From Candidatus Altiarchaeota archaeon (GTDB lineage Archaea > Altiarchaeota > Altiarchaeia > IMC4 > QMZM01): a stretch of DNA of 64,000 nt. Position 1 is the first letter of the stretch, and every line of letters starts with the position of its first letter. The stretch is from the NCBI GenBank assembly GCA_034659295.1, contig JAYEGX010000055.1, forward strand, positions 9,726 through 73,725, read 5' to 3'. The notes beneath the pieces were generated by a model that was not told where the DNA came from, searched no databases, and saw only the letters and a program-made list of their open reading frames with translations. The translations under genes were made by a program, and so were the position numbers. Below, piece by piece: positions 13,623 through 56,810 of this stretch.

Positions 13623-13648
13623 ACTAATAGTCTATTAATAGTCTACAA
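13623..13648. promoter_or_regulatory. Perfect 8-bp inverted repeat GTAGACTA(n12)TAGTCTAC immediately upstream of the AbrB-like gene; candidate operator
   Basis: ttagtaGACTActaatagtctattaaTAGTCtac read directly. It ends 2 nt before the ATG at 13650. Confidence 0.4.
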
Positions 13649-13649
13649 G

Positions 13650-13811: not shown

Positions 13812-13815
13812 GAAA

Positions 13816-36444: not shown

Positions 36445-36984
36445 TTACTGGCATAGAACTGCGAGGGGGTATTCAGCAGCAGGACACCAGTGCATCCTCA
36501 GCCAGCATTTCCCCTCATCGTCAAAAAAGCTAACTCCCCATTGTAGCCTGTTCGTATTCTGATCAACTATCATAAAACCGGTTGTTTGAATTTCATGATA
36601 GCCTGCTTGATATTGAGGTAGGGCTCCTACACTAGCAGTTTTGGTCATTTTATATGCACAATTAATAGGTACCATTCCATCGGGACACTCGGCTGCTATA
36701 TACCACTCTTTACCGCCCACAAATGGAACCGGGTTAATAACAAAATTTTCTCCTCCGTTGTCGTGTAGAACAGGACTGTCGAATAAATCCGACGTATATT
36801 CCACTGAATCCTTGCCGTAATACCATTCCACGCCCCCACAACTGAAATCTCCGTCATCGATAGCGCCCTGCAAACTCTTCTCCTGGCTGTTGATGTCTAT
36901 CTTAATATCATAACCTGAGTGCCACATATTCTTCGCAGGATCCCAGGAGCTGGCAACAACAAAACCAAGCCCGAAGAAAACCAA
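36445..36984 (-). CDS. Hypothetical secreted Cys-containing protein. TTG start in the track; possibly 5'-extended to an ATG at 37012 via a homopolymer frameshift.
   Basis: 179 aa with a hydrophobic N-terminus VFFGLGFVVASSW. An ATG at 37012..37010 is out of frame by one base, across C6 (36995-37000) and A6 (36983-36988) tracts. Confidence 0.4.
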   Translation of the reverse strand: MVFFGLGFVVASSWDPAKNMWHSGYDIKIDINSQEKSLQGAIDDGDFSCGGVEWYYGKDSVEYTSDLFDSPVLHDNGGENFVINPVPFVGGKEWYIAAECPDGMVPINCAYKMTKTASVGALPQYQAGYHEIQTTGFMIVDQNTNRLQWGVSFFDDEGKCWLRMHWCPAAEYPLAVLCQ

Positions 36985-37254
36985 AAAACAACAACCCCCC
37001 TGGAAAAACCATCACCCACCATTTTTAATCAATAAAGATAGGGTAGATAATCCATTAGATAGGTTATGATTTGAGGGAAGAATCCGCCTCCAAAATCCAG
37101 ACATACTGGCAGATAAAATAGACCCGATTAACATCAGAGAAAAAAAAGCCACAAAAAGTGTACACTGATTTTACCTCACCCCCCCTAAACAATTAATCTT
37201 CAGGGGGTTATTCTTTAAAACAAGGAGGTGATTTTTTTTATATTCCCCATTCGT

Positions 37255-40164
37255 CTAAAAAACAAAATATATCCAACAATCTTGCAGCCAAGTATCTCCG
37301 ATATTCTTGACCCAGACATACCAACAGCCGTCAGTTACCTGTTCAGGATAATTTATCGGCATAATCTTTACTAAATGTCGTGTCATATAATAATAAACAC
37401 CATCATGAACGCCTTTATATGCCCATGGATCTGCAGCAATGACTTTCTGGATACTGCTATAATCACTCACTGTGGGAGGGCCGATCTCCCAGTTTTGACC
37501 TGCATATTTGGCCATCACGTGCAGGTCGCCATGGCTGTAATGTGATTGCACCGCTGCCACGACTGTCAAAGTCGGATTGCTGGAACCAGAATCTGCCCGA
37601 AACTTAAAAAGTTTTATTTCTCCCGGCCTAAATCTAAAATCTCTGTAAGTGTCGCCCTTTATCAGCGTAATGCCCGGCCTTTCCCCGTCGCCATCACCGT
37701 CACCATCCCCGCCGCCGTCGCATTCGGAGAGTGGGGTTGAACAGGAAATGGATATGTGCCCTAAGATCGTGTCCTCCGGGGAATAGAATGCCGCGTACCA
37801 GAGCGATTTCGGGGTGGGTTTTGTAACCTCCAGCATTATTCCCGTAGAACCTGCACTCACACACCGTATGTATGAATCCTCATAACCTGCCGGTTTAGGG
37901 ATCATCCAGCCCCAAACAGTCGGATTACGGCTGATTTGCTGCCAATTAACGCCGTCGAAGCGTGTGTCGCCGACAGAGTTCATATACTCGATTTCTTCCA
38001 CGGTAGGCGGGCTGCCGCGCTTTAAAACAACACACCGGGCTCCGCCCGAATTCGAGTAAGGAGTTCCTATAATCTGTATAGGATGCCCCTCGTCATTGAT
38101 ACAACAGACGAATTTATAATAAACTGGTGTGCCGCCGTCAACATACACATCACTACCACCCGGAACCGTACCACCATCATGGAAATCACCGTCCACCAAA
38201 GGAATCCCGTCATCAGGAATCACTATATCCCCGTCACCATCGCCGTCACCATCGCCGCTACCGGCCTCAACACACTCTCCTGACATCATATTAACCATAC
38301 AGCCGCCAGCAATTCCACACGGGTTCATCGTACAACTCGCTCCACCGTAATCCCCACAACCAGAGGGAGGACTACCCCCACAACTCACACAGTTATTGTG
38401 TTTATTCACGTAACAGATGCCGGGAACACCGCAGATATTATAGATGCAATCCTGATACCCGGAAGACATGGAATAGCTGCTGCACTCCGTGATCAGAGAG
38501 CAATCAATACATGTTGGTGTTGTTGTCACACCCCCAGGAGAACGAAAAGGAAAATACAATATATTAACAATATTAACCACCAAAGCCATCAGGAGCAGGA
38601 CAATAATCACGTACTTGATGGCCCTCTTCGCCTCGCTTCTTTCGTAGGGCCCAAAAGAGACAATCAAGGCAACAGCATGTACGGCGAAAAACACCGCCGC
38701 CAGAATAATTAAGATAGTGGAGAAGAGACCCAGTAACCCGCCGACATTCTGATAGCCTTCGCATCCGCTGACACAGACCGCAGTACATTGCTCCCTGGCG
38801 CTTTCATCCTCGATGCCAGCACACCAGTCAGAGCAACAGGATTCACAATCCTCCCTGCAGTTCGCATACCCCCCGCATAACTGAGCCCAAATCTCCCTAC
38901 AGGTGGCACAGCACCTCGCCTCAACCCCCCCCTCCGAAGACATACCACCCCTTCCCACAGCCTGCGCAGTAATCTCCCGGCCATGACAGATCCCAGTGCA
39001 CGAGCACTTATATAGGAGGATTTCATCCAGCGGAGATGTTGTCGTAGTCACGAATTCCTCCACAACAACAGTCACAGTATCTCTATCAGTTTTACCTGCA
39101 TCAGAGCCTGAGCCGGTGAAAGTCAAGGATACGATAAATGTTCCCTCAGTGGCGTACTGGTGGCTGGTGCTTTCCCCTGAACCAGAGCTGCCGTCCCCGA
39201 AATCCCACCCGAAGCTGCCTACACCAATAGATTCGCTGGCATCGAAGTAGGCTGTGCCCCCAACACCTATGGTGACTGATTTTTTGTTCACATTTGTTGA
39301 GGTCTCACCCACGTAGGCTATCGCCTTGAAGTCAACGACCTCAACAGTCACAGTATCTATATCATTTTTACCTGCATCATCTCCTTCGCCGGTGAAAGTC
39401 AATGTCACAGTAAAGGTTCCCTCAGCAGGGAAGGTATGTGTTGGAGCGACTTCTGTATTGTCTACCGAACCGTCGCCGTCGAAATCCCACCCAAATCTGC
39501 CTTCACCACGAGAGTCGCTGGCATCGAAGTACACCACATCACCTATGTCAACGGTAACGCTCTTATAGTTAACATCTGATGCCGTCTTACCCACCTTGGC
39601 CACGGCATTAAACTCCGGCTCTTCAGGCTTCACCTCCTCTAAACGACAGTCGCAGTTACAGCCGTTTTCACAGCCGATGCTTACGTGGATGTGGGAGTGA
39701 TATGTTTTAATCCTGCCGCCCCCGCAATAGGCAAGCGCATCCCTTATCTCCTGCAGACATACCCTGTTTTTAAAATCCACTGCATAGGATTTACCTACAC
39801 ACGCCCTACCACCGTAGTGGCATGAATGTTCAACATGAGCGCATGGAGGCCGGCTCCATGAGCCGGGAACACACCTATCCATCCCCGCTGAATCAGAGAC
39901 CGAGCTTATAACCTTCGCCCTCTCAGGGAGGTAGCCCTCCATGCAGTCCAGAAGCGTTACAAGCGCAGGGGACATGTCACTGCATTGAGCGCCTGGGTTG
40001 CGTATATCATACTCACAAAGGATATACCCATGGCATGATGCTCCTGGCTGAGGGGAGCCGCTGCATTGAGCACTTGCAGAGTTGGAGAAAACGAAAAAGG
40101 ATATAATCATTAAACAGCTTATTCCCTTCAGGCCACGCCCAGCTCCCTTAGTTTCTGAATCCAT
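37255..40164 (-). CDS. Large surface protein: signal peptide, N-terminal domain with a peptidase M15 (VanY/Hedgehog-type) zinc motif, two PKD domains, Cys-rich regions, a mid-protein TM hairpin, (GD)n linkers, and a C-terminal beta-rich domain
   Basis: 969 aa. M15-like SCHYGGRACVGKSYAVDF (SxHxxGxAxD) with a downstream YHSHIHVS. PKD repeats ...YFDASDSRGEGRFGWDFDGDG... and ...YFDASESIGVGSFGWDFGDGS.... TM hairpin LLGLFSTILIILAAVFFAVHAVALIVSF / YVIIVLLLMALVVNIVNILYF. Linkers GDGDGDGDGD. Confidence 0.6.
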   Translation of the reverse strand: MDSETKGAGRGLKGISCLMIISFFVFSNSASAQCSGSPQPGASCHGYILCEYDIRNPGAQCSDMSPALVTLLDCMEGYLPERAKVISSVSDSAGMDRCVPGSWSRPPCAHVEHSCHYGGRACVGKSYAVDFKNRVCLQEIRDALAYCGGGRIKTYHSHIHVSIGCENGCNCDCRLEEVKPEEPEFNAVAKVGKTASDVNYKSVTVDIGDVVYFDASDSRGEGRFGWDFDGDGSVDNTEVAPTHTFPAEGTFTVTLTFTGEGDDAGKNDIDTVTVEVVDFKAIAYVGETSTNVNKKSVTIGVGGTAYFDASESIGVGSFGWDFGDGSSGSGESTSHQYATEGTFIVSLTFTGSGSDAGKTDRDTVTVVVEEFVTTTTSPLDEILLYKCSCTGICHGREITAQAVGRGGMSSEGGVEARCCATCREIWAQLCGGYANCREDCESCCSDWCAGIEDESAREQCTAVCVSGCEGYQNVGGLLGLFSTILIILAAVFFAVHAVALIVSFGPYERSEAKRAIKYVIIVLLLMALVVNIVNILYFPFRSPGGVTTTPTCIDCSLITECSSYSMSSGYQDCIYNICGVPGICYVNKHNNCVSCGGSPPSGCGDYGGASCTMNPCGIAGGCMVNMMSGECVEAGSGDGDGDGDGDIVIPDDGIPLVDGDFHDGGTVPGGSDVYVDGGTPVYYKFVCCINDEGHPIQIIGTPYSNSGGARCVVLKRGSPPTVEEIEYMNSVGDTRFDGVNWQQISRNPTVWGWMIPKPAGYEDSYIRCVSAGSTGIMLEVTKPTPKSLWYAAFYSPEDTILGHISISCSTPLSECDGGGDGDGDGDGERPGITLIKGDTYRDFRFRPGEIKLFKFRADSGSSNPTLTVVAAVQSHYSHGDLHVMAKYAGQNWEIGPPTVSDYSSIQKVIAADPWAYKGVHDGVYYYMTRHLVKIMPINYPEQVTDGCWYVWVKNIGDTWLQDCWIYFVF

Positions 40165-40652
40165 AGTTGAGTATCTCCTGGGACTATGAGGACGTCTTTC
40201 TCTTCATTGTTTTCTATGTAGTTAACCCGGATGTATTCCCTGAAAAGCTTGCTCTCTGTTTTCACTTCCTGCACCGAATTAAGCGGTATATCCAGGACCA
40301 CATCAAGCTCCTTGCCGATAATTCTCTTGTTGGTTAAGTACAGGCTCATGTACTTATGGGAGCGCCTCCCCAGCAGGCGACCCCTCTTGGAGGGAAACAA
40401 GACATAACCCTGGTCTATGCTCTCCAGGATTATTGACTCATCCTCGTCGGTTCTGGGGGGAATAACCTCCTTCTCAAAAGACATGAAAATCAGGTAGCTG
40501 CCGAACACCGCCAACAGCATGGCCAGAAAGCCTACCATGAACGGGAAACCAGTCCACAGGTTGTATACCAGAGCCAGAATCAACGCTATAACAAAACCCG
40601 CTATTACGCCCGTATATCCCAGAGCCCTTAAATCAGATTTATCCAATCTCAT
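40128..40652 (-). CDS. Membrane protein: 2 TM helices plus a cytoplasmic PH-like (bPH/YdbS-type) domain
   Basis: 174 aa. Two N-terminal helices, then a domain with a bacterial PH-like pattern (LYLTNKRIIG). Confidence 0.4.
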   Translation of the reverse strand: MRLDKSDLRALGYTGVIAGFVIALILALVYNLWTGFPFMVGFLAMLLAVFGSYLIFMSFEKEVIPPRTDEDESIILESIDQGYVLFPSKRGRLLGRRSHKYMSLYLTNKRIIGKELDVVLDIPLNSVQEVKTESKLFREYIRVNYIENNEEKDVLIVPGDTQLWIQKLRELGVA

Positions 40653-40703
40653 ATTGCCACCCTTATTTATTAGATTATTTAGGTTAAAGGGAAATAAAGG
40701 ATT

Positions 40704-42380: not shown

Positions 42381-42384
42381 TCTC

Positions 42385-43461
42385 TCAGTAATCCTCTGGT
42401 GGCTTGATGACAACCTCCTCCTCCTCAAAGGGTTTCCTCTCAATTGTTGTTTCACTCACTACCACAGCACCGCTGCTTAGTGGAGCGGCCTGGACTATCT
42501 CGAACATGAAAATCGACAGCCCCATCCAGTTCATAACACCCAGTATCATGAAGGGAACAGCAAACATAAAGATAAGTGATGTAGCGTATATGAACTCCAG
42601 CGGGAGATTAGGTGATATAACAGGGAGAGTCGCTACTGTCACGGAGACAATGATTAATCCCACAGCCCAGCCCAGCTGCAAAAAAATCCAGATGATAGTC
42701 TGCTCGAACATCATCTTCCCCGCGTTTCTGGTTAAGTCCCATGAATAAAAGAATATGGTTACCGGCAGGAGAACAGCCATCAACCCCGCCATGATGTATC
42801 GTATGAACAGTATCAGATACAGGGCCATTAATAGCACAGTATCCAGGAGGAATATCTCTATACCACCATACCTGTGTATGAGGGTTATTTTCACGAAGGT
42901 ATCAAAGAGATCCTGAGCAGCCGCCCGGAGCGAACCCAAGGCTATTGTTATATCAGCAAGGTTCATAATCTGAGATGTCAGGCTCCCGGAAACATAATAA
43001 AGCAACTCGACGAGTAAAGGGGATACAGATATGAGAACCAACCCGATAATCAGCTTACCAAACCATTTCTTAGCCCTTGCCCTGTTCAGCGGAGACTGTG
43101 AGACAAAGATTATATAGAACCCCGTTAACATTATGGCCGCAATATAAAAGGGCTGCATCAGGTTAATGAAGAAACCCATGAAATGCTTTATGCTCCACAT
43201 AGGTGGGTTGGCTTTTATCAGGGAGGGCATATTATCGAATACCGATAAATAAAAGTAATGGATAAGGTTAGCCGAGTATATAATAATCCCCTTCCTGGCC
43301 ATTTTCGCTGCTTCACTGGTTAACATATTGAGAACTCCGCTTAATCCTATCGAGTAACCAGTGTATCCTTTGGTTTTAGCAGCGGAGACTGGGGGGATAG
43401 AGGCTAACACTAAAAGGAGTAATACAACACCTACCACCAGATTTTTTGTTCTTGTTTTCAT
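42385..43461 (-). CDS. Paralogous polytopic membrane protein (family member 5), with a VirB6/TrbL-like topology
   Basis: Signal peptide plus 6 or more TM helices. Family motif LMQPFYIAAIMLTGFYIIFVSQSPLNRARAKKWFGKLIIGLVLISVSP...MFEQTIIWIFLQL. Confidence 0.55.
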   Translation of the reverse strand: MKTRTKNLVVGVVLLLLVLASIPPVSAAKTKGYTGYSIGLSGVLNMLTSEAAKMARKGIIIYSANLIHYFYLSVFDNMPSLIKANPPMWSIKHFMGFFINLMQPFYIAAIMLTGFYIIFVSQSPLNRARAKKWFGKLIIGLVLISVSPLLVELLYYVSGSLTSQIMNLADITIALGSLRAAAQDLFDTFVKITLIHRYGGIEIFLLDTVLLMALYLILFIRYIMAGLMAVLLPVTIFFYSWDLTRNAGKMMFEQTIIWIFLQLGWAVGLIIVSVTVATLPVISPNLPLEFIYATSLIFMFAVPFMILGVMNWMGLSIFMFEIVQAAPLSSGAVVVSETTIERKPFEEEEVVIKPPEDY

Positions 43462-45622: not shown

Positions 45623-45624
45623 GG

Positions 45625-46824: not shown

Positions 46825-49800
46825 TTATCTCTTACCTCTTAAATCCTCCAACCAGCTTTCAAGCTCCATCCTGCCCACCCCAAGGAATTTATATGAGAAC
46901 ACAGCCACAACCAGAATCGCCAACAAAACAAGAATCTCAGGGGAAAGCAGCGGCGTGTAAATCTCCACAACATTAAACCGCACAACCTTATTCAGGGAGC
47001 GTCCTGTTGGGTCAACATCACCATGGTGTTTAATCTCCAGAGAGAATGTTTTATGGGCATTTAATGTGAACTCAGCGTATCCATACTCTCCAGTAACCAC
47101 AAAATATTCACCGTCTTCCTCGCTTAAACCATTAGGGCTTAGACTGGAGAGGTCAACATCCTTGCTCCACACATCAACCCTCTTACCTGACTCACCCCGG
47201 TTTTTATCAATATTATATAGCCATAACTTAACAGTCACCTCTGAGCCAGGCGATAACACCACACCCTCCGGCTCAACCACATAAAACAAATCAACAGCAT
47301 CCCTGATTTTGAACTCATCAGCATCGCTGAGATTAAGCTCCCTGTGCTCATAGAAGGTATCTATAACTAGTTTACCGTCCTCAAACTCATCCCGGGGTAT
47401 TATGTCATAATCCTCCTCCCCTGAATAGAGGTGCCTGTAGGGCTCATAGTTTGTTCTAAAGTAGAGCGTGTAGTAATGTCCTCCAGGAAACACAGCATCT
47501 GAGACGTTGTGCTTGAAGTCGACAACAATTAATTTATTAAACCCGCCCATGGATTTAGCAGCCTCCAGACCATACCAGCTCATATCCTCAATATTCTTAT
47601 TGTCGAAGATAACAAAATCATACCCCTTGCCCACATTCACGTTGTCCACGATAGATTTGTGGTTAACAGCCTCTATCTTAATGCTTTTCATCTGGGGTCG
47701 GACATCATAGCATACCTTCTCCCAATGAACCTCACACGCCTCTTTTGAGATTGTATAGACTTCATTTCCACCGTCATAGTATTCTACTGTGAGTTCTATC
47801 TCAATGCTCTTTTTGTCGTCTATCCCAAACTCTAGACACAGCTGGTTATCTGGATCAGAGGTAGCACCCTTAGGTATATATTGTATCACACCAGAACCCT
47901 GCGGGAGTTTCAGTGCGTATCCGTTTCGTCCCATAAGCCTTTCATCAACGGTTGGCATGCCGCTAACAGCCTCCCACGGACCCAGCCCGGTATCGAATCC
48001 CATCTCGAAGTCGCCGTTGACTATAACGCTGCCCTCATCCTCATGGAATGTTCTGTTGGATGTGCACGGGTTATCATATCTCTTATCCGGGGCACAGACG
48101 CAGTCATCTTTCTCAATCAAGCGGTCACCGTAGCAGGCCATATACAATGCATCCGATCTGAATTCATCAAAACAGTAGACCCGATTGTGCTCAAACTCGC
48201 ATTCAAGGAGACCTATCTCGTTAAGGTATCTGGTGCAGAGGTTGTCTATGGCCTGCTTGTTGTCCTGGATTGAGCCATCCACACAAATCCTTTCCACGAC
48301 AGGGTCATCAGAGTAATGGGTACATAGGAGTTCCTCGATGTCATCCCTGTATTTTAGGGGGTTCGTGTTAATACACAGTGGCCGCATTATGTCCTCCGGA
48401 TCGCATTCACATACTGGGGGAGGGTCACAAAATGTCTGACACTGCTCCGGGAATTCGTATTTCTCGAACTCATAACCGTAGCGGCTGCCTAAACCATAAG
48501 AGATGCTGCCTCCAGAGCTTGATTTCTTTTTTATTGTTGAATGCGAGATGGGGCTTATAATCTCACGGTAGTCTGCATCAGAGTCTCCTACAAAAAGGGT
48601 CATCCCCCTGAACAAATCCGGCTGTATGGTGAAGTTGATGAACCCGTAGGTGGTTATGAAATCCCCCTCCTTGTATCTTGTAGCGTCCAAGACCAGATGA
48701 TGGTATATGGGCGAATCCTTCCAGCCGCTTGCGCAGCCGTTGTATATCCAGGGCACCTTCTCCCAGTTATACACATGATATTCACTCTCTATCGTGCTTG
48801 TCTCCTGCTCATGATACCAGGACAGGATTTCCTCCCTCCACTGGTGCCAGCACTGATTACAGATAGCACAGTAAGGACAGCAGCAGGTGCAGGGACATAT
48901 AAGCATAATCTTCTCGCTAACTCCGCCGCACCAATCACAACAATACCCAACATTCTTATCAGCTAGAAGGAACTGGTAGTAGGGAGTAATTGCATGACAG
49001 TCACCACAGGGGCAGTCGCATTCCGGGCAGGTTTGGCACTCGTATCTGTCGCAGGCTGTATAAAACCGGTCCTCCCTGATGCCTGTTAGATAATCCTGTT
49101 TAGCTGTGAACTTTAGCTTCATGTATGAACTATTCACTACCTCGGATCTAAAAACATCAGAGTCCATGGTAAGCCTGGACCACCTCCCCAACTTGGACTT
49201 ATAGTATCTAACCGCCGTAATGTCCGAGCAACCGTCCGGGTCTTTACACTCGTAGGGCTCTGAAGCTATCCAGTAGGCGCAAGTCAGTTGGAAGGGTATG
49301 TTGGCTGTGTCGATTATCCTAAATGTACCGCCTTTAGACATCCAGATGTTTTCGCTTATGTTATAGATCTCCATCCGCTGCGGTTCCCCAAAAGGCAGCA
49401 TGCTACCAGAAGATAACCCAACCTTGAATTTTGTGCTGGCTTTAGCCCCACCCTCCAGTATATACTTGGTGAGACATAACGGCCCAGGAGCCTCCTGCTT
49501 CTGCTCTATGATGGTGTAGGGGTGGGCTTCATATTGCTGCGAACCCCCAATACAACTTGAACAATCCGTGCAAACAGACAACAGCTTCCACTTACAGTAT
49601 ATGTTATCCGAGCCCCAGATGCGCTCGTACCATGGAACCTCAAACTTCTCGAAGCCTGCCTGCCCATAGCCCACATCATTGCACTCCTCCGGGGGGCAGT
49701 CCCTCATAAGCTGGTATTGTGTGATAACCTCACATGGTATAGGATTCATCTGGTCAGGACCACCCCAGCAGTCGCCGTGTGGAGGTACTAACTGATTAGG

Positions 49801-51474
49801 CAGGCATTCAGGCGCCTCTTCTTCATCAGACTTGCATTCATCGTCCACGCCACGATAAAGCTTGCAGGGGCCTGTCTGCAGGGTACCGGGAGGATCATCC
49901 TCTGAATCGAAACCAGAGCATAAATCAAAGGGTGGAGCCTCACCATCACAATGCTCGTATTGTGTGGCATCATCGTCCATGGGATCAAAGGGATCGCATT
50001 CCTCTAACAGCTCACATGGGGTCCCATGCCGGCAGCTCCAGTCACATGCATCCGTCCTGTCCTGCCCGGAACCCACATACCTATCTGTATCAACCCCCTC
50101 CGCATAACCCCACGCGCCGCATTTAACTGGACCAGTCACCGCTATCAGGGGAGAGAGCATGAAAAACCTGACCCAGAGACCATGCCACGCCTTCGTTATA
50201 TCCTCCAGAGGAGGTCCCATAATGGTTCCAAGTATCACCTCCCCATCAGGCCCCTTAAACGTAACAGCGCTCTTGTTCGGCATCTCGTTGATGTACACAA
50301 AGACATCATTCCAGTTTTTCTGGTCCCGGATGTATAACTCATCGACTGAAAGCAGGTTAGCATTCTCTGTGAAAGAATACATCATATACGGCAGCTCATA
50401 GCAGTAGCTGTCATCCCTTAAGCCTGTTTTATAGCAGTAGAGTCTCTCGGACTCATCCATACCCCCAAGAGACCGGATGTAGTGCTTAGCCCAGGCCTCA
50501 AAAAATGTGACATAAACCTCATCCGCCCCAAGGAAGGTGTGTATGTTGTAGAAGGTTGCTGGTTCATCAGGCAGAGAATCATCACCTGATAAATCCGCTA
50601 AAGAAGCCGCTCCATCCATACTATGGTAGTGCTCGACAAGCGCCTTATACAATAAATCATTAACCAAAGTCCACGTATGGTTTGAGGCACCCCCATACGC
50701 CTCCAATATAAAACAACGTTTTTCAGCGTCCATAATCCAGTACTTCACCTGGTTCTCTCCGGTGAAATCCTCATAAGGCTGGAATTCACAGACCAGGGAT
50801 TCCTCATTCCACACGCATTTCTTGGTTTTAGAGCAAGCGTATTCTGTAGCGTATTCACTGCACCTGTAGGATGGCTTAGAGGCTGCGACCAAAAACCGGG
50901 AGGGGTTTATCACAAGCTCCATCTCCTGATCTTCACTTTCACCCCGCCCCAGATCACCTGTCCTGGTGCATCTGGCGATGGGGGTGGAGGAGTAGCCGAA
51001 TGCGTAGGAATCCTCCCGCTCGTATTGTCTCAGAATCCTGTCCTGGCTGGAAATGAAGGCATAGTCTTTTTCATCAACACTGCTGCCTTCATCCAACACC
51101 TCACATTCATCTAAATCCAACAACAGGGTCTTAAAGCAGTAATATCTGTTTCCGCCTTCTGTTTTCACATACACTTCAGGTTTTATGGTAATATTCGCCT
51201 CAGGGGTTCCATCGTTTGTTACATTAATGCTTCCGTTGTGATACAGGTATGCGTCCGCTATACCAGCGAATCCCAGGTTCTCATAATCCGGTGGTTCACC
51301 ATCTGATAGAGGCAGGTAGGGCACCTGATGACAGTTTGTATCCCCCCAATCACAGTCCTCAGCCTCGCTATAGGGCCCATAGCTTATGCCGCAGAGATCC
51401 TCCTCCTGGGCGGTTACAACGCTGAAAGAAAACAGGAACAATAAAGCTGCAGCATACAGGGGGAAGGATTTCAT
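46825..51474 (-). CDS. Giant (1549 aa) Cys-rich secreted protein with a C-terminal TM anchor. Adhesin or structural surface protein; first gene of the minus-strand cluster.
   Basis: Signal peptide MKSFPLYAAALLFLFSFSVVTAQ. Cys-rich throughout (e.g. CPCTCCCPYCAICNQCW, CDWCGG), with many N-x-S/T sites. C-terminal LLSPEILVLLAILVVAVFSYKF plus a charged tail. Its stop abuts the start of the next gene (46824/46825). Confidence 0.6.
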   Translation of the reverse strand: MKSFPLYAAALLFLFSFSVVTAQEEDLCGISYGPYSEAEDCDWGDTNCHQVPYLPLSDGEPPDYENLGFAGIADAYLYHNGSINVTNDGTPEANITIKPEVYVKTEGGNRYYCFKTLLLDLDECEVLDEGSSVDEKDYAFISSQDRILRQYEREDSYAFGYSSTPIARCTRTGDLGRGESEDQEMELVINPSRFLVAASKPSYRCSEYATEYACSKTKKCVWNEESLVCEFQPYEDFTGENQVKYWIMDAEKRCFILEAYGGASNHTWTLVNDLLYKALVEHYHSMDGAASLADLSGDDSLPDEPATFYNIHTFLGADEVYVTFFEAWAKHYIRSLGGMDESERLYCYKTGLRDDSYCYELPYMMYSFTENANLLSVDELYIRDQKNWNDVFVYINEMPNKSAVTFKGPDGEVILGTIMGPPLEDITKAWHGLWVRFFMLSPLIAVTGPVKCGAWGYAEGVDTDRYVGSGQDRTDACDWSCRHGTPCELLEECDPFDPMDDDATQYEHCDGEAPPFDLCSGFDSEDDPPGTLQTGPCKLYRGVDDECKSDEEEAPECLPNQLVPPHGDCWGGPDQMNPIPCEVITQYQLMRDCPPEECNDVGYGQAGFEKFEVPWYERIWGSDNIYCKWKLLSVCTDCSSCIGGSQQYEAHPYTIIEQKQEAPGPLCLTKYILEGGAKASTKFKVGLSSGSMLPFGEPQRMEIYNISENIWMSKGGTFRIIDTANIPFQLTCAYWIASEPYECKDPDGCSDITAVRYYKSKLGRWSRLTMDSDVFRSEVVNSSYMKLKFTAKQDYLTGIREDRFYTACDRYECQTCPECDCPCGDCHAITPYYQFLLADKNVGYCCDWCGGVSEKIMLICPCTCCCPYCAICNQCWHQWREEILSWYHEQETSTIESEYHVYNWEKVPWIYNGCASGWKDSPIYHHLVLDATRYKEGDFITTYGFINFTIQPDLFRGMTLFVGDSDADYREIISPISHSTIKKKSSSGGSISYGLGSRYGYEFEKYEFPEQCQTFCDPPPVCECDPEDIMRPLCINTNPLKYRDDIEELLCTHYSDDPVVERICVDGSIQDNKQAIDNLCTRYLNEIGLLECEFEHNRVYCFDEFRSDALYMACYGDRLIEKDDCVCAPDKRYDNPCTSNRTFHEDEGSVIVNGDFEMGFDTGLGPWEAVSGMPTVDERLMGRNGYALKLPQGSGVIQYIPKGATSDPDNQLCLEFGIDDKKSIEIELTVEYYDGGNEVYTISKEACEVHWEKVCYDVRPQMKSIKIEAVNHKSIVDNVNVGKGYDFVIFDNKNIEDMSWYGLEAAKSMGGFNKLIVVDFKHNVSDAVFPGGHYYTLYFRTNYEPYRHLYSGEEDYDIIPRDEFEDGKLVIDTFYEHRELNLSDADEFKIRDAVDLFYVVEPEGVVLSPGSEVTVKLWLYNIDKNRGESGKRVDVWSKDVDLSSLSPNGLSEEDGEYFVVTGEYGYAEFTLNAHKTFSLEIKHHGDVDPTGRSLNKVVRFNVVEIYTPLLSPEILVLLAILVVAVFSYKFLGVGRMELESWLEDLRGKR

Positions 51475-52140
51475 TTTCGTTTGTTATATTATTACCCAAA
51501 CAGTAATATATCCCATAGTCTGGTTAATTGATGGTTTTGAATAACCCCTTGTTTTTATGGTTAAGTATTTGCTTTATCAAATATTTAAGCGATAGGTGGG
51601 TGATTGATTCTGTCTTTTTAGGATCATGTTTTTACGGGAGACTGTAGGAGCGTGTTCAAGGGCTTAGGTGATCATAAGATAGGGGAACACAGGAAAACTG
51701 GTGGAATACACCCGGAAGAAACAAAAAAAAAGGGGGAGTTAAGCAAACCACTCTATTCTCTTTCTCAAGTTGTTGGATACGAACTTCAAATTGCTTAATA
51801 CGCTTTTCCAGTTGTTCGACGTATGCGTCTTTGTCGAGCATAAAGGCATATAATGCAAGCTCCTATTTCTGTTTATTGGTTTTAGCCTCCCAAAACAGAT
51901 AACTACATGAAGCTAAACACGTGCGATTTAACCTTTTATGAGCAGACTAGCATTTCACGTGAGTGGCTGTAAGGGCAACATCAGTTGAGGGTATGATCCT
52001 GGAGGTGAGAAGGAAGTTTATGTTCTACAGCATGTTCTTGGGCTTGTGAATGGAGCTAAGAGGGACGTAAAGATATTAAGCTGGAGAACTTAATAGTTAT
52101 TGTTGAACTGGATTATTCAACACAGCATAGCGTGTAGAGA

Positions 52141-55100
52141 ATGAGAAGGATTGCCTTACTGTCTATGATGGGAGTGATAGGGATTCTGCTGATGTTATTG
52201 GTTGCGGCAGCATCAGCAACAGTAGTTGTCTTAGATCCAGGTCACGGAGGCAAAGACCCTGGTGCTGTAGGTCCAACAGGATTACAAGAGAAAGATGTTG
52301 CTCTCCAAGTTGCGTTAAAGACTAAATCACTACTAGAAGCATCTGGGATAACTGTTATTTTGACCCGATCTACGGATACATATGTTAGTTTAAGTGAGAG
52401 GGTGAATATAGCTAATAATGCCAATGCGGATTTATTTGTATCTATTCATTGCAATGCTTTTACGGATCCATCAGCACATGGGACCGAGACATGGTATAGC
52501 TCAAGTGCTCCAGACCCGGATAAAGCAAAAAAACTTGCAGAATTCGTGCAATCTGAACTCTTATCTCAGCTAGGATTACGTGATCGAGGAGTCAAAAAGA
52601 ATGGATTTTATGTTATAAAGTATACAGATATGCCCTCTTGCCTAGCAGAATTGGCATTCATTTCGAATCCCAACGAAGAGGTACTTTTAGCAGATCCAAG
52701 CTTCCAGCAGAAAGCAGCACGAGGGATATATGAGGGAATTATGGATTATTTAGGGATATTTCCGCCTTGTTCTCTAGACTCCGTCTCAATACAACCAGAT
52801 TGCTCTGGAGGCTCCTCCCCCAAATGTGAAAAGGGTGAGCGAATCAAGATAGATGTAACATATAGCGGAGATTGCCCATCCACCGCGTATATACAGATTG
52901 GCGCCAAAAGCGGAGACGGTAAATGCGTCATAGAGCATACTGGCGGAAACATGGTGGGAATGGATATATCCTGCACTTCTTCTCCATGTACAGGCTACTG
53001 GACGATTCCAGAGATACCACCAAACTGCCTATGCAAGAATATGAATGCAGCAGGAGCTGGGATATATAAAGACAGCATCTCTCCAGAAAATTATCTCGAC
53101 GGCATAACAGCCACAGGGTCGTTTGAATTCTGGTGCCCTAAAGCCCCCGTCGCAGACGCAAGAGTCGGTAGAACAGCAGACGAAAAACTAAAAGAAATCA
53201 CTGTCAAAGTCGGCGACACTGTCTACTTCGACGGAGAAACATATTCCGTTGGGAAAATAACGGAATACAGCTGGGACTTTACCGGGGATGGAATATACGA
53301 CTGGAGCTCAACAACAACCGGAAAAACCACCCACCAATACAATGAAAAGGGGTCCTACATCGCCGAACTAAAAATCACCAACGACAAAGGCGAAACAGAC
53401 ACAGACATTGTTATCATCCACGTAGTAGAAGAAGAGGAAGAACCTACCTTCCTCTCAGATATCTGCCCCGCTCCGCCGAACGATTACTTGATGAGGATGA
53501 TATGTCTGGTTGTGCCCATCCTTTGTGTGATAATGAACATCCTGGTGCCAGTAATGTTTGTCCTAGTTGCCTTAGGGGGTTTGATGCAGCTGAGCACCGA
53601 CGGGGGGATAAAAAACAAGGGTAAACAGGTGATATTCAACACCATCCTTGGGGTGGTTATTATCTCAGCATTCATAGGTTTATCGGATTTATTGATAGAG
53701 GAAGTCAACATCATGGAGGTGTGTTTACTCGGGGAGATTCCGCCGCCTGCTTTAAGAGCGTATATTGATGCTGACCCGACCTCCGGACCCCCACCACTTG
53801 AGGTTTCCTTAACCGGGAGCGCATCCGGGGGAACCGCACCCTACACCTACAGCTGGGACTGTGGTGGAGGAACCCCAGAGGTGACAGGCTCAAACACCGC
53901 AACATGCACATACACAAGCGAAGGAACATACACTGTAACATTAACCGTAACAGACGCGGAAGATGGAACAGCCACAGCCACCCAGACAATAACCGTTAAA
54001 GTAGCTGAGTTAAAAGCGTATATTGATGCTGAACCGACCTCCGGACCCCCACCACTTGAGGTTTCCTTAACCGGGAGCGCATCCGGGGGAACCGCACCCT
54101 ACACCTACAGCTGGGACTGTGGAGGAGGAACCCTAGCAGTCACAGGCTCAAACACCGCAACATGCACATACACAAGCGAAGGAACATACACTGTAACATT
54201 AACCGTAACAGACGCGGAAGATGGAACAGCAACAGCCACCCAGACAATAACCGTTGGAGTAGTAGTTGAGTGCGAGGATCCGTCATGTGATGAGATCTAC
54301 GGTTACATAGACGGCGCCATCGCAGGCTTAGGGGTGGACGACAGTTTGGTGAGGGCTGTGATAAAAAAAGAAAGTGATTATCACCAGTGTTGCTTTGGCC
54401 CCTACATTGGGGTTACATGTGAGGAAGGTGAGGTCCTTAAATCACATGCTGGGGCTTTGGGTTTGATGCAGCTGATGCCGGGGACAGCCAGCGAGTTAGG
54501 CGTTGATCCTGAGGACCCGCAGCAGAATGTTGAGGGAGGCGTTAGGTACCTGAACACGCAGCTAAATGAATTTGGCAGTGTGGAGCTGGCTCTCGCCGCC
54601 TATAACATGGGGCCCGGGTATGTGGCGTGTTCGCTGGGTTATGATTGGCCTGTCTGTGCACAATATCCAGGATATGATCTATGTGGTGCCGGAGTATGTA
54701 AGGCTCCAGCTGAACGGAATTGGGCTTGTCTTAGTACATGCTCTATCCCTGCTGAAACATTAGGATACGTTAATGGCATAATGGGGATTATAGGAACATC
54801 TGCAGCGGATTGCAGTGATCTGCCTACGCCTACAGCATCCTTCACCGCAAACCCTCTAACAGGACCTGCACCCCTCACAGTCGACGTGGATGCTTCCGCT
54901 TCAACAGGAGCAACAACCTACACTTGGGGCTGGGAGGACGGAACCCCGGGTGGTTCAGGAGTAACTGCATCACACGAATACACAACCGACGGAACCTACA
55001 CCATAACCCTGACCGTATCAGACGGCACATACACAGACACAGACACTGAAACAATAATTGTCGGTTCGTTATCAGTGTCCATTGAATCACCACCTGATGG

Positions 55101-56031
55101 AGCATCATTTGCTGAAGGCGATACAATTGAGTTTCGTGGTACGGTAGGGGGCGGAACTCCTCCCTATACCCTCGAATGGGGTTCCAGTATAGATGGAGTC
55201 ATAGGTACTGAATCTGGTTTCTACTATGATGAATTATCTCAGGGAACGCATACCATTACTTTAACTGTAACAGACAGTAGCAGTCCTCAGAAAACAGGAG
55301 GTGCTACAGTGGATATAACAATAACTGAGCCGGAGTGTAGAGCAGTAATAGAAAATGGAGACCATGATGCTAAAATCGATGTCGTCTTCATTAGAGCATT
55401 TGACGCACAACCGGATGCGTTACCGCCTAATTTCGAAAATATGATAGACTCGGCAAAAATTGATTTTATTCACACAGTCCCTATCAGAGATAATACAGAT
55501 AAATTCAACTACTATTACTACACAAAAAAGGGCAGCGTGTATGCGGGTTCTAATGGTCTTTGCGCTGGGAGTTCTCCTCCCGGCTATATTACATACTGCA
55601 GTTTCGCAGACACAACCGCATACCTGCACAAAGAAACATGTAGGGACTGTTCGCATACGTCTGCAACTCTTGATCCCCCCATGCCGGGAAGCAGCTTCAC
55701 TGTCACAGATAATTTTCATAAGCATAAAACCTTCACTCATGAGGCGGGACATGCAATATTCAATTTAAGAGATGAATACTATGACCTGCTTCCAATCCAC
55801 CGGGAGCTTTCTTCAAACCCTAATATATGGTCAAGCCAGGCCAACTGTGAGGCAGATAGAACCTCTGAAGGCTGGACGGAAGCATGTGAGCAGATATGCG
55901 ATGCTAGTGGAACAAATTGTGTGGATTATTGGAGGCTGGATTATGATTGCATTATGAGAGTGCATATGAACGTGAATTTCTGTCCGGCATGCAGTAGGAG
56001 GATTAGTTGGGTATTTACTCTCTTTAATTAG
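52141..56031 (+). CDS. Giant (1296 aa) multidomain cell-wall-hydrolase-like surface protein: Amidase_3 (N-acetylmuramoyl-L-alanine amidase), PKD, a mid-protein TM hairpin, 2x PKD, SLT lytic-transglycosylase domain, PKD/Ig-like, and a peptidase M64-like HExxH metalloprotease domain
   Basis: Amidase_3 region [18 protein letters not shown]...[10 protein letters not shown]...TETWY...[12 protein letters not shown] region [11 protein letters not shown]...[17 protein letters not shown]...[12 protein letters not shown]64-like region [10 protein letters not shown]...[17 protein letters not shown] hairpin [28 protein letters not shown] / [18 protein letters not shown]. Confidence 0.7.
53750..54265 (+). 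repeat. Near-identical (~97%) tandem duplication (2 x 258 bp), each unit encoding one PKD domain
   Basis: ttaa(g/a)agcgtatattgatgctga(c/a)ccgacctccggacccccaccacttgaggtttcc... occurs twice (53750 and 54008) with only a handful of substitutions. Confidence 0.8.
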
Positions 56032-56039
56032 GGGTGTGT

Positions 56040-56810
56040 ATGATGGGAAAAAAAGAGGTGACATTGGCGGGGTTGATGATTCTATTTATTCTCAGTTCAA
56101 CCCCTGCAGTAGAGGAAGAAATGGATTTAACCAAGATTGTGGTGATAGGGCTTGAATTCAGAGGAGGCAGCCTCCATCAGAGGTCTGTGGATATAGCATA
56201 CAATTATCCGCCAGACTATAAGATTCCGCCGACAGAGGGGTTAACTGTTGAAATCCGCTCAAGAGACAACAGATTATTGAAGAATTTCATCCGCCCAGAC
56301 CCCAGGTGGGTTATTATATCACATGCAGGTCTCAGGTACCGGGAAAACGCTAGCTTTGACCTGATCCTGCCCTTCGTTAAGGGAATGGATTTAATCGAAA
56401 TATTTGATCGAAACAAAAGCAGATTAATCTCGGTAAATCTGGCTGAAGAGGTAAGGTCATTCTGTGCTGAGAGAAACGGCGTCTGCGACCCAGACTGTCC
56501 TAAAGGGGTTGACCCAGACTGTCCGACAATAGCATCCTCGACCTCAACAACAGAATCCATGGGGGGAGGGGATGATAGCCTGGCATATATTTTTGGGTTT
56601 GTGGTTGTTTTCGTCGCCGGATTCCTCATCTACAGGCGATACAGTGGAATAAGAAAGATGGAGGATACCCGGGAGAAAAGAGAGGAGATGATTGAGTGGA
56701 TAGAGAAACAGTTGAGGGAGGGTGAAGACCCTGAGAAACTCAAGACCATCGTCAGGTCACAGGGATTCGAGGAGGAACTGATTGACTACGTCGAGAAGAA
56801 GCTGATGTAG
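56040..56810 (+). CDS. Single-pass membrane protein: signal peptide, extracellular domain with a CDPDCPKGVDPDCP module, TM helix, acidic cytoplasmic tail
   Basis: Start MMGKKEVTLAGLMILFILSSTPA. TM LAYIFGFVVVFVAGFLIY. It lies immediately downstream of the giant hydrolase gene. Confidence 0.5.
   Translation: MMGKKEVTLAGLMILFILSSTPAVEEEMDLTKIVVIGLEFRGGSLHQRSVDIAYNYPPDYKIPPTEGLTVEIRSRDNRLLKNFIRPDPRWVIISHAGLRYRENASFDLILPFVKGMDLIEIFDRNKSRLISVNLAEEVRSFCAERNGVCDPDCPKGVDPDCPTIASSTSTTESMGGGDDSLAYIFGFVVVFVAGFLIYRRYSGIRKMEDTREKREEMIEWIEKQLREGEDPEKLKTIVRSQGFEEELIDYVEKKLM

Follow-up and report, generated by a model that had tools for sequence, protein, structure and literature searches.

So far, the domesticated T4SS derivatives described from archaea are Ced and Ted of the Thermoproteota, with a hint of a further case in the nanohaloarchaeal SPEARE proteins. 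Ced and Ted are chromosomal, have neither a relaxase nor a T4CP, and comprise VirB2-like pilins, a VirB4-like ATPase and a single VirB6-like protein, the N-terminus of which resembles a pilin (PMC9905601). An N-terminal VirB2-like hairpin has been reported for both VirB6 and CedA (PMC9905601), and VirB6 is a pentamer that recruits VirB2 together with VirB3 (PMC12624023). The SPEARE proteins are giant membrane-anchored surface proteins of DPANN-type archaea, tied to T4SS-type components by a VirB4/TraG-like ATPase in the same polypeptide (PMC10266531). Among bacteria, the rvh T4SS of the diderm Rickettsiales has five tandem, divergent VirB6 paralogs, often with very long flanking extensions; its genes, VirB7-11 and VirD4 included, are spread over chromosomal "islets", are inherited vertically and are not part of a mobile element, and in Rickettsia the VirB6 array adjoins virB3/virB4 (PMC2653234). 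The MPF-FATA T4SS of Patescibacteria (CPR) and monoderms is chromosomal and phylum-wide in ultrasmall or uncultivated hosts. It combines T4SS_pilin (PF18895), PrgI (VirB3), VirB4 and VirB6 with VirB1-type murein hydrolases, which open the cell's own wall, and some of the CPR VirB4 proteins cluster with archaeal homologs (PMC12102498). Archaea are also known to encode murein hydrolases aimed at bacteria, in the form of free secreted enzymes with neither a pilin anchor nor a T4SS-like locus (PMC12352652).

The locus described here is an island of ~20 kb from an uncultivated Altiarchaeota archaeon, analyzed within a stretch of 64 kb that is called the window below. It shares with Ced and Ted an archaeal host, a chromosomal position, VirB2-like and VirB6-like elements and the lack of a relaxase or T4CP. 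When compared with the descriptions of these two systems (PMC9905601), whose hosts are not Altiarchaeota, it differs in having five VirB6-like genes instead of one, relatives that adjoin a VirB3/PrgI-like protein, and murein hydrolases fused to pilin-type domains, none of which has been reported for Ced or Ted. The five tandem VirB6-like copies, the probable dispersal of the T4SS genes over separate chromosomal sites and the vertical inheritance recall the rvh system, which, however, has neither pilin-enzyme fusion proteins nor the small membrane protein s174. There is no detectable sequence relation between the two arrays beyond the fold, and the likeness is either convergent or very distant. 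No five-paralog VirB6 array or hydrolase-pilin fusion has been described for the Patescibacteria (PMC12102498), and no VirB6 array for SPEARE (PMC10266531).

The locus and its five VirB6-like paralogs

Every ORF listed in the first-pass annotation of the DNA is present at the position given there (Table 1). The minus-strand genes abut or overlap, as had been noted: the successive gaps are 0, 2, -25, -4, -71, 51 and -37 nt, followed by 270 nt before the last small ORF. The latter (179 aa) has no Pfam match, lacks homologs in the related loci and does not start with a clear signal peptide; it is doubtful that it is a gene or a member of the system. The divergent intergenic region, put earlier at about 660 bp, measures 666 bp. 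In comparison with the related genome ex4484_2, ~130 bp beside the 1549-aa gene and ~95 bp beside the 1296-aa gene are conserved, and the middle part has diverged.

Table 1. Features of the locus, in order of position in the window
Feature	Position	Strand	Remarks
179-aa ORF	36445..36984	-	TTG start; downstream of the 270-nt gap
969-aa pilin-domain fusion protein	37255..40164	-	
VirB2/T4SS_pilin-like hairpin of the 969-aa protein	38530..38739	-	aa 476-545
s174, 174 aa	40128..40652	-	beta-rich domain (PH-like?) after two TM helices
VirB6-like paralog 5, 583 aa	40704..42455	-	N-domain before VirB6-like core
VirB6-like paralog 4, 358 aa	42385..43461	-	structure modelled
VirB6-like paralog 3, 408 aa	43458..44684	-	
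VirB6-like paralog 2, 320 aa	44660..45622	-	aa 99-149 score 19 bits with the pilin HMM
VirB6-like paralog 1, 399 aa	45625..46824	-	signal peptide, VirB2-like hairpin (aa ~119-173), more TM helices
1549-aa Cys-rich surface protein	46825..51474	-	first gene of the operon
Divergent promoter region	51475..52140	.	between the 1549-aa and 1296-aa genes
AT-rich boxes	52069-52079 and 52090-52100		within the divergent promoter region
Palindrome GTTGAA-N8-TTCAAC	52102-52121		within the divergent promoter region
1296-aa pilin-domain fusion protein	52141..56031	+	
Amidase_3 domain	52225..52740	+	aa 29-200; Pfam 1.7e-62, 211 bits; full-length, catalytic motifs intact
TM hairpin of the 1296-aa protein	53452..53715	+	aa 438-525
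SLT lytic transglycosylase domain, VirB1-like	54307..54627	+	aa 723-829; Pfam 1e-16, 61 bits
M64-like zinc metallopeptidase domain	55351..56028	+	aa 1071-1296; HEAGH
258-aa single-pass membrane protein	56034..56810	+	CDPDC..DPDC motifs; 2-nt gap after the 1296-aa gene

The membrane proteins encoded in tandem are 27-32% identical to one another, have motifs in common and are, to judge by these similarities, true paralogs, as had been proposed. They number five in all, where six had been counted: besides four tandem copies (399, 320, 408 and 358 aa) there is one of 583 aa that has an N-terminal domain. The latter protein has 583 residues from the GTG codon as called, Met26 being the likelier start. 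Its N-domain of ~290 aa is extracellular, contains Cys residues and is conserved in loci L003 and L020, and the 1028-aa ortholog at position 5 of locus L012 gives a weak HH_signal (LAS-type) match.

A fold search with the model of paralog 4 returned the VirB6 fold, with a core as in TrwI, as the top match by two methods. The Foldseek E values of 0.014-0.2 are weak, and the model, made from a 14-sequence alignment, has a pLDDT of 66.7. Paralog 1 matches the family HMM at 4e-91 and Pfam T4SS_pilin at 0.0012. Family members are similar to neighbours bearing Pfam TrbL_3 (BLASTP E 1e-22 to 1e-24), which provides a transitive link. The window paralogs themselves match neither Pfam TrbL (PF04610) nor TrbL_3 (PF19590), a 90-sequence family profile found nothing among the PDB sequences, and a precomputed PF19590 match of the ortholog P0003 was not reproduced by local search. 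An invariant Trp, W258 of the 358-aa paralog, might correspond to the essential conserved Trp of VirB6. The fold match and the T4SS gene context of the family, described below, bear out the earlier reading of these genes as a VirB6-like polytopic array. Each of the five is a polytopic protein of VirB6-like type that opens with a VirB2-like hairpin.

An exhaustive HMMER search exposed a VirB6-like family of 455 cluster representatives, of which all named ones belong to Altiarchaeota; word-indexed searches with the family profile had given close orthologs only. Pfam finds almost no domains in the extensions of the long members. In every locus with enough flanking sequence, the five VirB6-like genes, s174 and the pilin-domain protein or proteins follow one another in the same order. 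The best matches of the five paralogs are positional in 30 out of 30 cases; for paralog 1, the best match in six other lineages is likewise the first of the five. Gene order and chromosomal borders are kept down to ~25-40% identity, and in ex4484_96 (57-78% identical) the island has the same borders, the RFC small subunit on one side and AI-2E and PGM on the other. The block is kept together across lineages, and its genes do not scatter, which would have spoken against a single apparatus. That all five paralogs keep their positions as orthologs argues for a long history of vertical inheritance; the five copies are ancient, each being separately conserved in a constant order.

The small protein s174 had been called a 2TM-PH protein. 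Its two TM helices and beta-rich domain (6-7 strands and a C-terminal helix) are present, but the match to bPH_3 (0.0018) is below threshold, and a single-sequence AF2 model with a pLDDT of 53 is too poor for a fold search. Homologs of s174 (36-96% identity) are found invariably after the fifth paralog, and s174 is the conserved marker of the five-paralog type of array. A 174-aa protein of the L014 core cluster was considered as a possible counterpart and rejected, as the two have no BLASTP similarity.

The product of the first gene is, as annotated earlier, a giant Cys-rich anchored protein. It contains 71 Cys residues (4.6%), begins with a signal-like segment and is anchored by a C-terminal TM at aa 1509-1527. 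No known domain was found in it, and a PDB sequence search was empty. Its orthologs occupy the same first position with 86% identity in L003, 57% in L001 and L020, and 42% in L005; L012 has a partial match (26% over aa 695-1388).

Surface proteins with pilin-type hairpins

A two-TM hairpin in the middle of the chain had been reported for the surface proteins of the locus and was found in both the 969-aa and the 1296-aa proteins. Hairpins of pilin type are domains of seven proteins of the window, and their topology fits that of a signal peptide followed by a two-TM hairpin. The window proteins score 18.7-23.3 bits with T4SS_pilin, i.e. below the cut-off of 26.6 bits, and the assignment relies on several further comparisons. 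The hairpin of the 969-aa protein matches Pfam T4SS_pilin at 0.0019 and the NCBIfam Mbov_0395 pilin-like family at 4.5e-05, scores 22 bits with a custom altiarchaeal pilin HMM, and is similar to the small pilins of the L016 VirB4 cluster (BLASTP E 3e-05 to 7e-04). Its homolog in L006 reaches 48.6 bits with T4SS_pilin, over the cut-off. The direct pilin HMM score of the 1296-aa hairpin is weak (4 bits). The ex4484_96 ortholog, which is 45% identical over this hairpin, matches the pilin HMM at 4e-05, and the homologous hairpin-plus-PKD regions of a 557-aa protein in L009 and a 1173-aa protein in L008 score 39.9 and 34.6 bits with T4SS_pilin, over the cut-off. This hairpin can be classified as VirB2-like through transitive homology only. 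In both large surface proteins, extensive extracellular parts lie on either side of a VirB2-type hairpin.

In the 969-aa protein, a signal peptide, a Cys/His-rich N-domain, two PKD domains and a Cys-rich module precede the hairpin, which is followed by a Cys-rich module, (GD)5, a module, (GD)4 and another module. The (GD)n linkers, at aa 637 and 819, are confined to this protein and do not occur in several proteins of the locus, as had been thought. For the C-terminal modules (aa 650-969) none of the loci has a homolog, and the ex4484_2 ortholog has a MopE-like plus PIG-L-like module in their place. The protein had been described as PKD/M15-like; the two PKD domains stand, but the N-domain has no Pfam or NCBIfam match as an M15/VanY/LAS domain and no PDB sequence match at E<=10. 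The resemblance is a His/Asp pattern seen by eye, the weak HH_signal match being in a different protein, that of L012.

The 1296-aa protein consists of a signal peptide, Amidase_3, a Cys-rich region, a PKD domain, the VirB2-like hairpin, two PKD domains, SLT, two PKD/Ig domains and an M64-like zincin, with four PKD domains in total. The name "amidase/SLT/M64 giant" given to it earlier is right as to the first two domains, while the match of the third is weak (Pfam 0.0067, PDB 4df9 0.008, IgA protease 0.02) but consistent with its motifs, HEAGH and DCIMR..FCPAC, the latter conforming to the CxMR..FCxxC pattern. The ES, GLMQ and AYN.G motifs of SLT are all seen. Above threshold and with their catalytic motifs, SLT and Amidase_3 are predicted to be murein hydrolase domains. 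The 258-aa membrane protein encoded next is only weakly similar (E 8e-06) to the 296-aa product of the gene that occupies this position in ex4484_96.

The Amidase_3 domain is missing from the ex4484_2 and ex4484_96 orthologs. The start of the SLT region is kept in ex4484_2, and SLT was not found in the ex4484_96 ortholog. The extracellular heads of the pilin-fusion proteins thus differ between close relatives, those of the relatives including PIG-L-like and transglutaminase-like ones. Because Amidase_3 is missing in both closest relatives and SLT in one, the conserved function of the module must be other than an attack on murein. With regard to features of polymorphic toxin and CDI-like systems, the heads, some of them beyond (GD)n linkers, are variable at both the C- and the N-termini, and no toxin domain or candidate immunity gene was identified.

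PrgK, TraG of pIP501 and CwlT are membrane-anchored T4SS hydrolases in which a lytic transglycosylase is combined with a second murein-cleaving domain. In contrast to such VirB1-type and monoderm hydrolases, the Altiarchaeota proteins have a VirB2-like hairpin in the middle of the chain as their anchor, the archaeal host is not expected to have murein, and the set of enzymes varies between sister genomes.

The VirB4 core and alternative readings

The first-pass annotation had found no ATPase, secretin or pilin and had concluded that the locus is not a canonical T4SS or T4P. There is indeed no ATPase in the locus and none of the VirB4 type in the 64-kb window, no secretin-type match in a Pfam scan of the proteins of the locus and the larger of the ORFs beside it, and no Pfam match in the locus to T4P, secretin or archaellum components. 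The hami, the grappling hooks of altiarchaea, were considered as an explanation as well; no S-layer-like match came from the locus. Pilin-like hairpins, however, are present as domains, and together with the VirB6-like elements they place the locus within the T4SS world. The window has no match to the VirB3-like HMM and no free small pilin gene, and no effector was seen. Pfam domains of relaxases, T4CPs and integrases are absent from the locus and its flanks and from those altiarchaeal VirB4 clusters that were inspected.

In other genomes, members of the family have as neighbours a VirB4 ATPase, VirB2 pilins and a PrgI protein of VirB3-like type. Such clusters contain a pilin, a VirB6-like giant, a PrgI/TraC-like protein, VirB4 and more pilins, with housekeeping genes on either side. 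Their VirB4 belongs to DUF87/AAA_10/P-loop_TraG, and PrgI next to VirB4 in L016 and L018 scores 31-32 bits (cut-off 27). VirB4 orthologs are 55-90% identical across Altiarchaeota, both closest relatives included. The core of the ex4484_2 type consists of pilin, VirB3 and VirB4 only, with no adjacent VirB6-like gene. The protein P0262, 96% identical to the VirB4 of this type, is MEA1924691.1, and the window proteins are MEA1924904 to MEA1924914; from the proximity of these accessions, the VirB4 gene, on a separate contig of 16.9 kb, very probably belongs to the same MAG, although MAG binning can err. A pilin/VirB3-like/VirB4 core is thus present at a separate site in the relatives and, very probably, in this MAG. 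The locus alone is not a T4SS, and the genome probably has one.

By combining these observations, it is fairly likely that an apparatus derived from a T4SS is fixed in the chromosomes of Altiarchaeota throughout the phylum and that the locus encodes its membrane and surface parts. The earlier proposal of one undescribed apparatus is upheld in so far as the genes form one conserved block and no description of the Altiarchaeota system was found in the searchable literature; being derived from a T4SS, it is not a wholly unknown machine.

It is possible, though rather unlikely, that the array has been exapted from a T4SS as a stand-alone device for surface display, a VirB4-free platform or insertase that anchors the hairpin fusions and neither builds a pilus nor transfers anything. 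The absence of an ATPase, VirB3 and free small pilin from the locus and window agrees with such a device, as does the fact that the VirB6-like clusters of L009, L015, L017 and L008 have no ATPase within 10 kb. The array also has in s174 a conserved partner that the VirB4 core clusters lack. On the other hand, the same family is located inside VirB4 clusters in L014 and L016, and known VirB6 proteins work with VirB3 and VirB4 (PMC12624023). Moreover, the VirB4 core of the window lineage has lost or lacks a VirB6-like gene of its own, for which sharing is the simplest explanation.

Less probable is a role like that of Ced and Ted, in which the whole altiarchaeal system would swap or import DNA between archaea and the hydrolase heads would be additions of single lineages, for example for the remodelling of a matrix or biofilm. 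Murein, for which Amidase_3 and SLT are specific, is lacking in archaeal partners, but the enzyme heads are not conserved in the relatives, as this reading would have it. The system is chromosomal and vertically conserved and has a minimal VirB2/VirB4/VirB6 set with neither relaxase nor T4CP (PMC9905601), and yet Ced and Ted possess a single VirB6-like protein and no pilin-enzyme fusions, and the VirB3-like PrgI and several pilins are closer to the monoderm/Patescibacteria type than to Ced (PMC12102498).

That the locus is the relic of an integrated conjugative element or plasmid is very improbable. T4SS-type genes are typical of mobile elements, and the Amidase_3 segment deviates in GC3 (0.31 versus 0.57-0.60 in housekeeping genes), but GC and GC3 of the locus are otherwise close to those of the flanks, save in some enzyme-head segments. 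No integrase, relaxase or T4CP is present and no tRNA gene lies within the 64-kb window, the borders in ex4484_96 are identical in spite of its divergence, and the five paralogs keep their positional orthology across lineages. A chance grouping of ordinary transporters with ordinary S-layer or surface proteins, which the NCBI name of one family member (ABC transporter permease) and the lack of Pfam matches in most of the locus proteins might suggest, is the least probable reading of all and is already contradicted by the VirB6 fold as the top match of two methods, the pilin-type hairpins, the strict gene order and the T4SS context in other genomes.

Proposed mechanism and significance

If the locus does supply the membrane and surface parts of a T4SS-derived apparatus, its mode of action can be envisaged as follows. 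The five paralogs would form a hetero-oligomeric, probably pentameric platform similar to the VirB6 pentamer of the R388 stalk. This platform would cooperate with the distant VirB3/VirB4 core and recruit proteins by means of their pilin hairpins. The fusion proteins may then come to lie in the envelope or else within a conjugative-type pilus or at its base, and their enzyme heads would face outwards; large domains on either side of a pilin may, though, not be compatible with pilus packing. Upon contact, the heads would act on the envelopes of neighbouring cells, and such contact may serve killing, feeding or the exchange of DNA or protein. In the present genome the target would be bacterial murein, because the archaeon is not expected to possess murein of its own.

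The attack on bacteria is deduced from enzyme domains that are not conserved even among the nearest relatives. The complete picture, in which Altiarchaeota have domesticated a conjugation-type machine and use a heteropentamer-loaded pilus with exchangeable murein-degrading "warheads" to breach, upon contact, the walls of neighbouring bacteria, is put forward as a tentative one that is more probably wrong than right. Were it true, it would be the first T4SS-derived inter-domain weapon or feeding device of an archaeon, and the first known pilus in which enzymes are integral parts, fused to pilins.

Altiarchaeota are a widespread phylum of subsurface and hydrothermal habitats and have unusual envelopes; a T4SS-like system conserved in their chromosomes throughout the phylum would be a third and architecturally different case beside Ced and Ted. 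Its five distinct, conserved VirB6 paralogs offer a natural test of the five-fold VirB6 stalk and parallel the unexplained five copies of Rickettsia. The exchangeable murein hydrolases on pilin domains suggest a new way for a filament or envelope complex to display enzymes and, with the recent evidence of bacteriolytic hydrolases in archaea, provide a concrete locus for studies of archaeal-bacterial contact. About 450 clusters of "hypothetical" proteins gain an annotation.

The island and its conservation

The gene map of the first-pass annotation agrees with the ORFs as called, and five polytopic paralogs are counted instead of the six it had claimed. From the 1549-aa gene onwards, the minus-strand genes are spaced by 0, 2, -25, -4, -71, 51 and -37 nt, with 270 nt ahead of the last ORF (179 aa), which has no conserved counterpart in any compared locus. 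The divergent 1549-aa and 1296-aa genes are separated by 666 bp. Hydropathy profiles give signal-like N-termini, a C-terminal anchor in the 1549-aa protein (Cys content 4.6%) and mid-protein hairpins in the 969-aa (aa 484-536) and 1296-aa (aa 460-519) proteins. The small protein s174 has a sub-threshold bPH_3 match. The (GD)n linkers ascribed to several proteins are present in the 969-aa protein and absent from the others, and the "M15-like" label of that protein finds no support in Pfam or PDB sequences.

Genes of the island (ORF map, positions in the window)
Feature	Position	Strand
179-aa ORF	36445-36984	minus
969-aa protein	37255-40164	minus
174-aa protein (s174)	40128-40652	minus
583-aa paralog	40704-42455	minus
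358-aa paralog	42385-43461	minus
408-aa paralog	43458-44684	minus
320-aa paralog	44660-45622	minus
399-aa paralog	45625-46824	minus
1549-aa protein	46825-51474	minus
1296-aa protein	52141-56031	plus
258-aa protein	56034-56810	plus

A palindrome, GTTGAA-N8-TTCAAC (52102-52121), lies 20-40 nt 5' of the ATG of the 1296-aa gene, downstream of two AT-rich boxes (within 52069-52100). Its arms are kept in ex4484_2, one of the two closest relatives, with a different spacer, which suggests a candidate operator for a regulator.

The 358-aa paralog is 100% identical to NCBI MEA1924906.1 (U9M95_03460), whose gene lies on a contig of 82,415 bp in a Candidatus Altiarchaeota MAG. The island is flanked by archaeal housekeeping genes: AI-2E transporter and phosphoglucomutase (PGM) on one side; RFC small subunit, IleRS, ThyX and a split MetE on the other; RtcB, NMD3, L15e and others farther out. 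MetE, the cobalamin-independent methionine synthase, is encoded by two adjoining genes (324 and 268 aa, 62202-63979, minus strand). No tRNA, integrase or relaxase was found in the 64-kb window, where the P-loop proteins are a GTPase, a MoxR ATPase and RFC only. Elsewhere in the window, a 424-aa TnpB-like ORF with a Cas12f1-like_TNB domain (9983-11257, minus) abuts a homoserine dehydrogenase gene and probably represents either an element of IS200/IS605 type or a TnpB that has been domesticated. A low-GC patch (12001-14601; 0.353 against about 0.45), adjoining a DUF5131 gene (13804-14601, 344 bits), may be a small foreign insert. Two large plus-strand ORFs (2476-8608) encode probable exoenzymes, one of 1319 aa with GHL15 and GH5 cellulase domains and one of 715 aa with two esterase/PHB-depolymerase-like halves, a hint of polymer degradation in this lineage.

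With s174 as the marker in a metagenome scan and component HMMs run over 28 loci and the window, the same order of exactly five VirB6-like genes, an s174 homolog and one or two pilin-domain proteins is found in every locus with enough flank (the window, ex4484_2, ex4484_96, L006/L028, L012/13, L021 and L025-27), and short contigs fit this arrangement. In ex4484_96, the other closest relative, the borders are those of the window, the whole island again lying between RFC small subunit at one end and the AI-2E and PGM genes at the other. The best matches of the window paralogs occupy the equal position in six other lineages in 30/30 cases (31-92% identity), with runner-up scores 1.15- to 8-fold lower, and the matching repeated between two distant lineages gives 15/15. 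This positional orthology indicates that the five-fold set is old, vertically inherited and individually maintained copy by copy. The genes are not scattered in relatives, and the block proposed in the first-pass annotation is real, conserved and non-random.

The VirB6-like family and a distant VirB4 core

Modelled with AF2 (14-sequence alignment, pLDDT 66.7), the 358-aa paralog has TrwI chains as its top five Foldseek matches (prob 0.96-1.0, E 0.014-0.2, TM 0.33-0.50). At the N-terminus of every paralog, a signal peptide precedes a two-TM hairpin. Seven bona fide small altiarchaeal pilins served to build an HMM, which scores 14-20 bits on these hairpins in four of the five copies and 3.6 bits in the 583-aa copy; T4SS_pilin is sub-threshold on the 358-aa and 399-aa paralogs. 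This is in keeping with the homology of the VirB6 and CedA N-terminus to VirB2-type pilin (PMC9905601). Sequence profiles match neither Pfam TrbL nor PDB sequences, so that membership of the VirB6 family rests on the predicted fold, gene context and transitive homology, the window paralogs matching Pfam-annotated TrbL_3 neighbours of family members elsewhere at E 1e-22 to 1e-24.

When 1.84 billion cluster representatives were searched exhaustively with HMMER, 455 members were recovered at E<=1e-3, 120 of them at <=1e-30. All source-named members are from Altiarchaeota or Altiarchaeales, and many are extended, up to 2261 aa, by regions without known domains. One 1430-aa member, P0118 (MCX6695058.1), is named "ABC transporter permease" at NCBI, probably a misannotation.

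The neighbourhoods of distant members and the window fall into three cluster types. The core type (the P0153 locus, L014 and L016), set between housekeeping genes, begins with a small T4SS_pilin gene, a VirB6-like giant, a 152-174-aa protein and a second VirB6/TrbL_3-like protein, followed by a PrgI/TraC-like (VirB3-like) protein, a VirB4 ATPase of about 755 aa (DUF87, AAA_10, P-loop_TraG) and 2-3 more pilins. The second type (L008, L009, L015, L017) starts with a pilin-fusion protein (PKD/MopE), continues with 4-5 VirB6-like genes and sometimes includes giants; no ATPase was found within 10 kb of these clusters. The giants, recorded as 8720 aa (L015:18341-24653) and 17370 aa (L017:11255-18329), lie directly after the VirB6-like genes in further Altiarchaeota genomes and recall the SPEARE-type giant proteins of nanohaloarchaea. 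The third type is that of the window: five VirB6-like genes, an s174 homolog and then pilin-domain protein(s).

The L016 VirB4 has more than 1000 relatives. Its orthologs among Altiarchaeota are 55-90% identical and include B6U72_01580 (ex4484_2) and B6U97_03735 (ex4484_96). VirB4 and the array lie on separate contigs in ex4484_96, and locus-tag order suggests the same for ex4484_2. The VirB4 neighbourhood of the ex4484_2 lineage, in an eRF1/PheRS/PMT setting, holds a 141-aa pilin, a 293-aa PrgI/TraC-like protein and VirB4 only, and is thus a core without an adjacent VirB6-like gene; the counterpart setting in L014 also houses VirB6-like genes. A VirB4 96% identical to that of ex4484_2 (P0262, MEA1924691.1) is encoded on a 16.9-kb contig, about 215 accession numbers in the same submission from the window proteins (MEA1924904, MEA1924906, MEA1924909, MEA1924914). 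Subject to binning error, this contiguity makes it very likely that both belong to one MAG. Other VirB4 relatives (P0277-P0283, about 42-44% identity) occur in archaea such as Candidatus Diapherotrites, some fused to a TraC-like/VirB3-like domain (1071-1110 aa), so that comparable chromosomal systems may be widespread in DPANN-type archaea.

Pilin-fusion proteins with exchangeable heads

The 969-aa protein contains two PKD domains and a hairpin (aa 476-545) with pilin matches (sub-threshold T4SS_pilin 0.0019, NCBIfam Mbov_0395 pilin-like 4.5e-05, custom pilin HMM 22 bits; BLASTP against the small pilins encoded in the VirB4 cluster of L016, 3e-05 to 7e-04); its L006 homolog exceeds the T4SS_pilin cut-off at 48.6 bits. 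The 1296-aa protein carries Amidase_3 (1.7e-62), four PKD domains, SLT (1e-16) and a faint M64 match. Its hairpin scores poorly as a pilin alone. It shares 45% identity with the hairpin of the ex4484_96 ortholog, which matches the pilin HMM at 4e-05, and, together with the next PKD, is homologous to L009 and L008 regions that pass the Pfam threshold (39.9 and 34.6 bits). With a signal peptide ahead of two TM helices, both large flanks of each fusion protein would lie outside the cell.

These flanks are not conserved in close relatives. In the ex4484_2 ortholog an unrelated segment of about 160 aa replaces Amidase_3 behind a shared signal peptide, and the SLT region is conserved at its start. 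The ex4484_96 ortholog begins at the hairpin, has a zincin-like domain and a transglutaminase-like core (24 bits), and contains no detected Amidase_3 or SLT. The C-terminal modules of the 969-aa protein after the (GD)n linkers have no homolog in any compared locus, their ex4484_2 counterpart being a MopE-like and a weak PIG-L-like module. The GC3 of the amidase segment (0.31, against 0.57-0.60 in housekeeping genes) fits a recent foreign origin. Catalytic motifs of Amidase_3 and SLT are retained, and the weak M64-like assignment of the C-terminal domain agrees with its motifs.

The single ORF of the 969-aa protein corresponds to two genes in ex4484_96 (262 and 204 aa, 155-bp gap, L020:15317-16874) and to two overlapping ORFs in ex4484_2 (L003:13191-15901), with the frame change within the hairpin. 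Gene fusion, gene fission or assembly errors could account for this.

A possible display platform

In the R388 system, a VirB6 pentamer sits at the base of the stalk, VirB6 and VirB3 recruit VirB2 out of the membrane, and the pilus stands atop VirB6 (PMC12624023). By combining these data with the gene content of the island, the five paralogs may be pictured as a hetero-oligomeric, probably pentameric, platform that would serve the distant VirB3/VirB4 core. Its clients would be the proteins with a VirB2-type hairpin, and their enzyme heads would project from a pilus or an envelope complex. Altiarchaeota are not known to possess murein, and murein-specific heads would therefore make sense only against bacterial walls. 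Because sister genomes differ in their heads, the platform's conserved role is predicted to be display or delivery instead of murein lysis.

A VirB4-independent display system is possible, given that several VirB6-like clusters have no ATPase within 10 kb and that s174 is specific to the array. It is also possible that the whole system serves DNA exchange in the manner of Ced or Ted, its closest archaeal relatives in kind (PMC9905601). An integrated mobile element is unlikely in view of the conserved borders, the vertical inheritance and the missing mobility genes. Ordinary transporters with S-layer proteins are likewise unlikely, given the fold matches, pilin hairpins and strict synteny.

In formal terms, the array is best compared with the rvh T4SS of Rickettsia, which has five tandem VirB6 paralogs bearing divergent extensions and genes spread over islets (PMC2653234). 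Closest in gene content are the T4SS of Patescibacteria and monoderms, with PF18895 pilins, PrgI, VirB4, VirB6 and VirB1-type hydrolases (PMC12102498). Thematic neighbours are the SPEARE giants of nanohaloarchaea, which carry VirB4-like domains (PMC10266531), and bacteriolytic hydrolases from archaea (PMC12352652). In the literature searched on Altiarchaeota type IV secretion and DPANN VirB4, no description of the present system was found. The first-pass reading is supported in part: its conserved block and VirB6-like paralogs stand, and its undescribed apparatus is best filed as T4SS-derived. What sets this apparatus apart is a fixed set of five VirB6 paralogs, pilin-enzyme fusions with exchangeable heads and a possible link to contact between archaea and bacteria.
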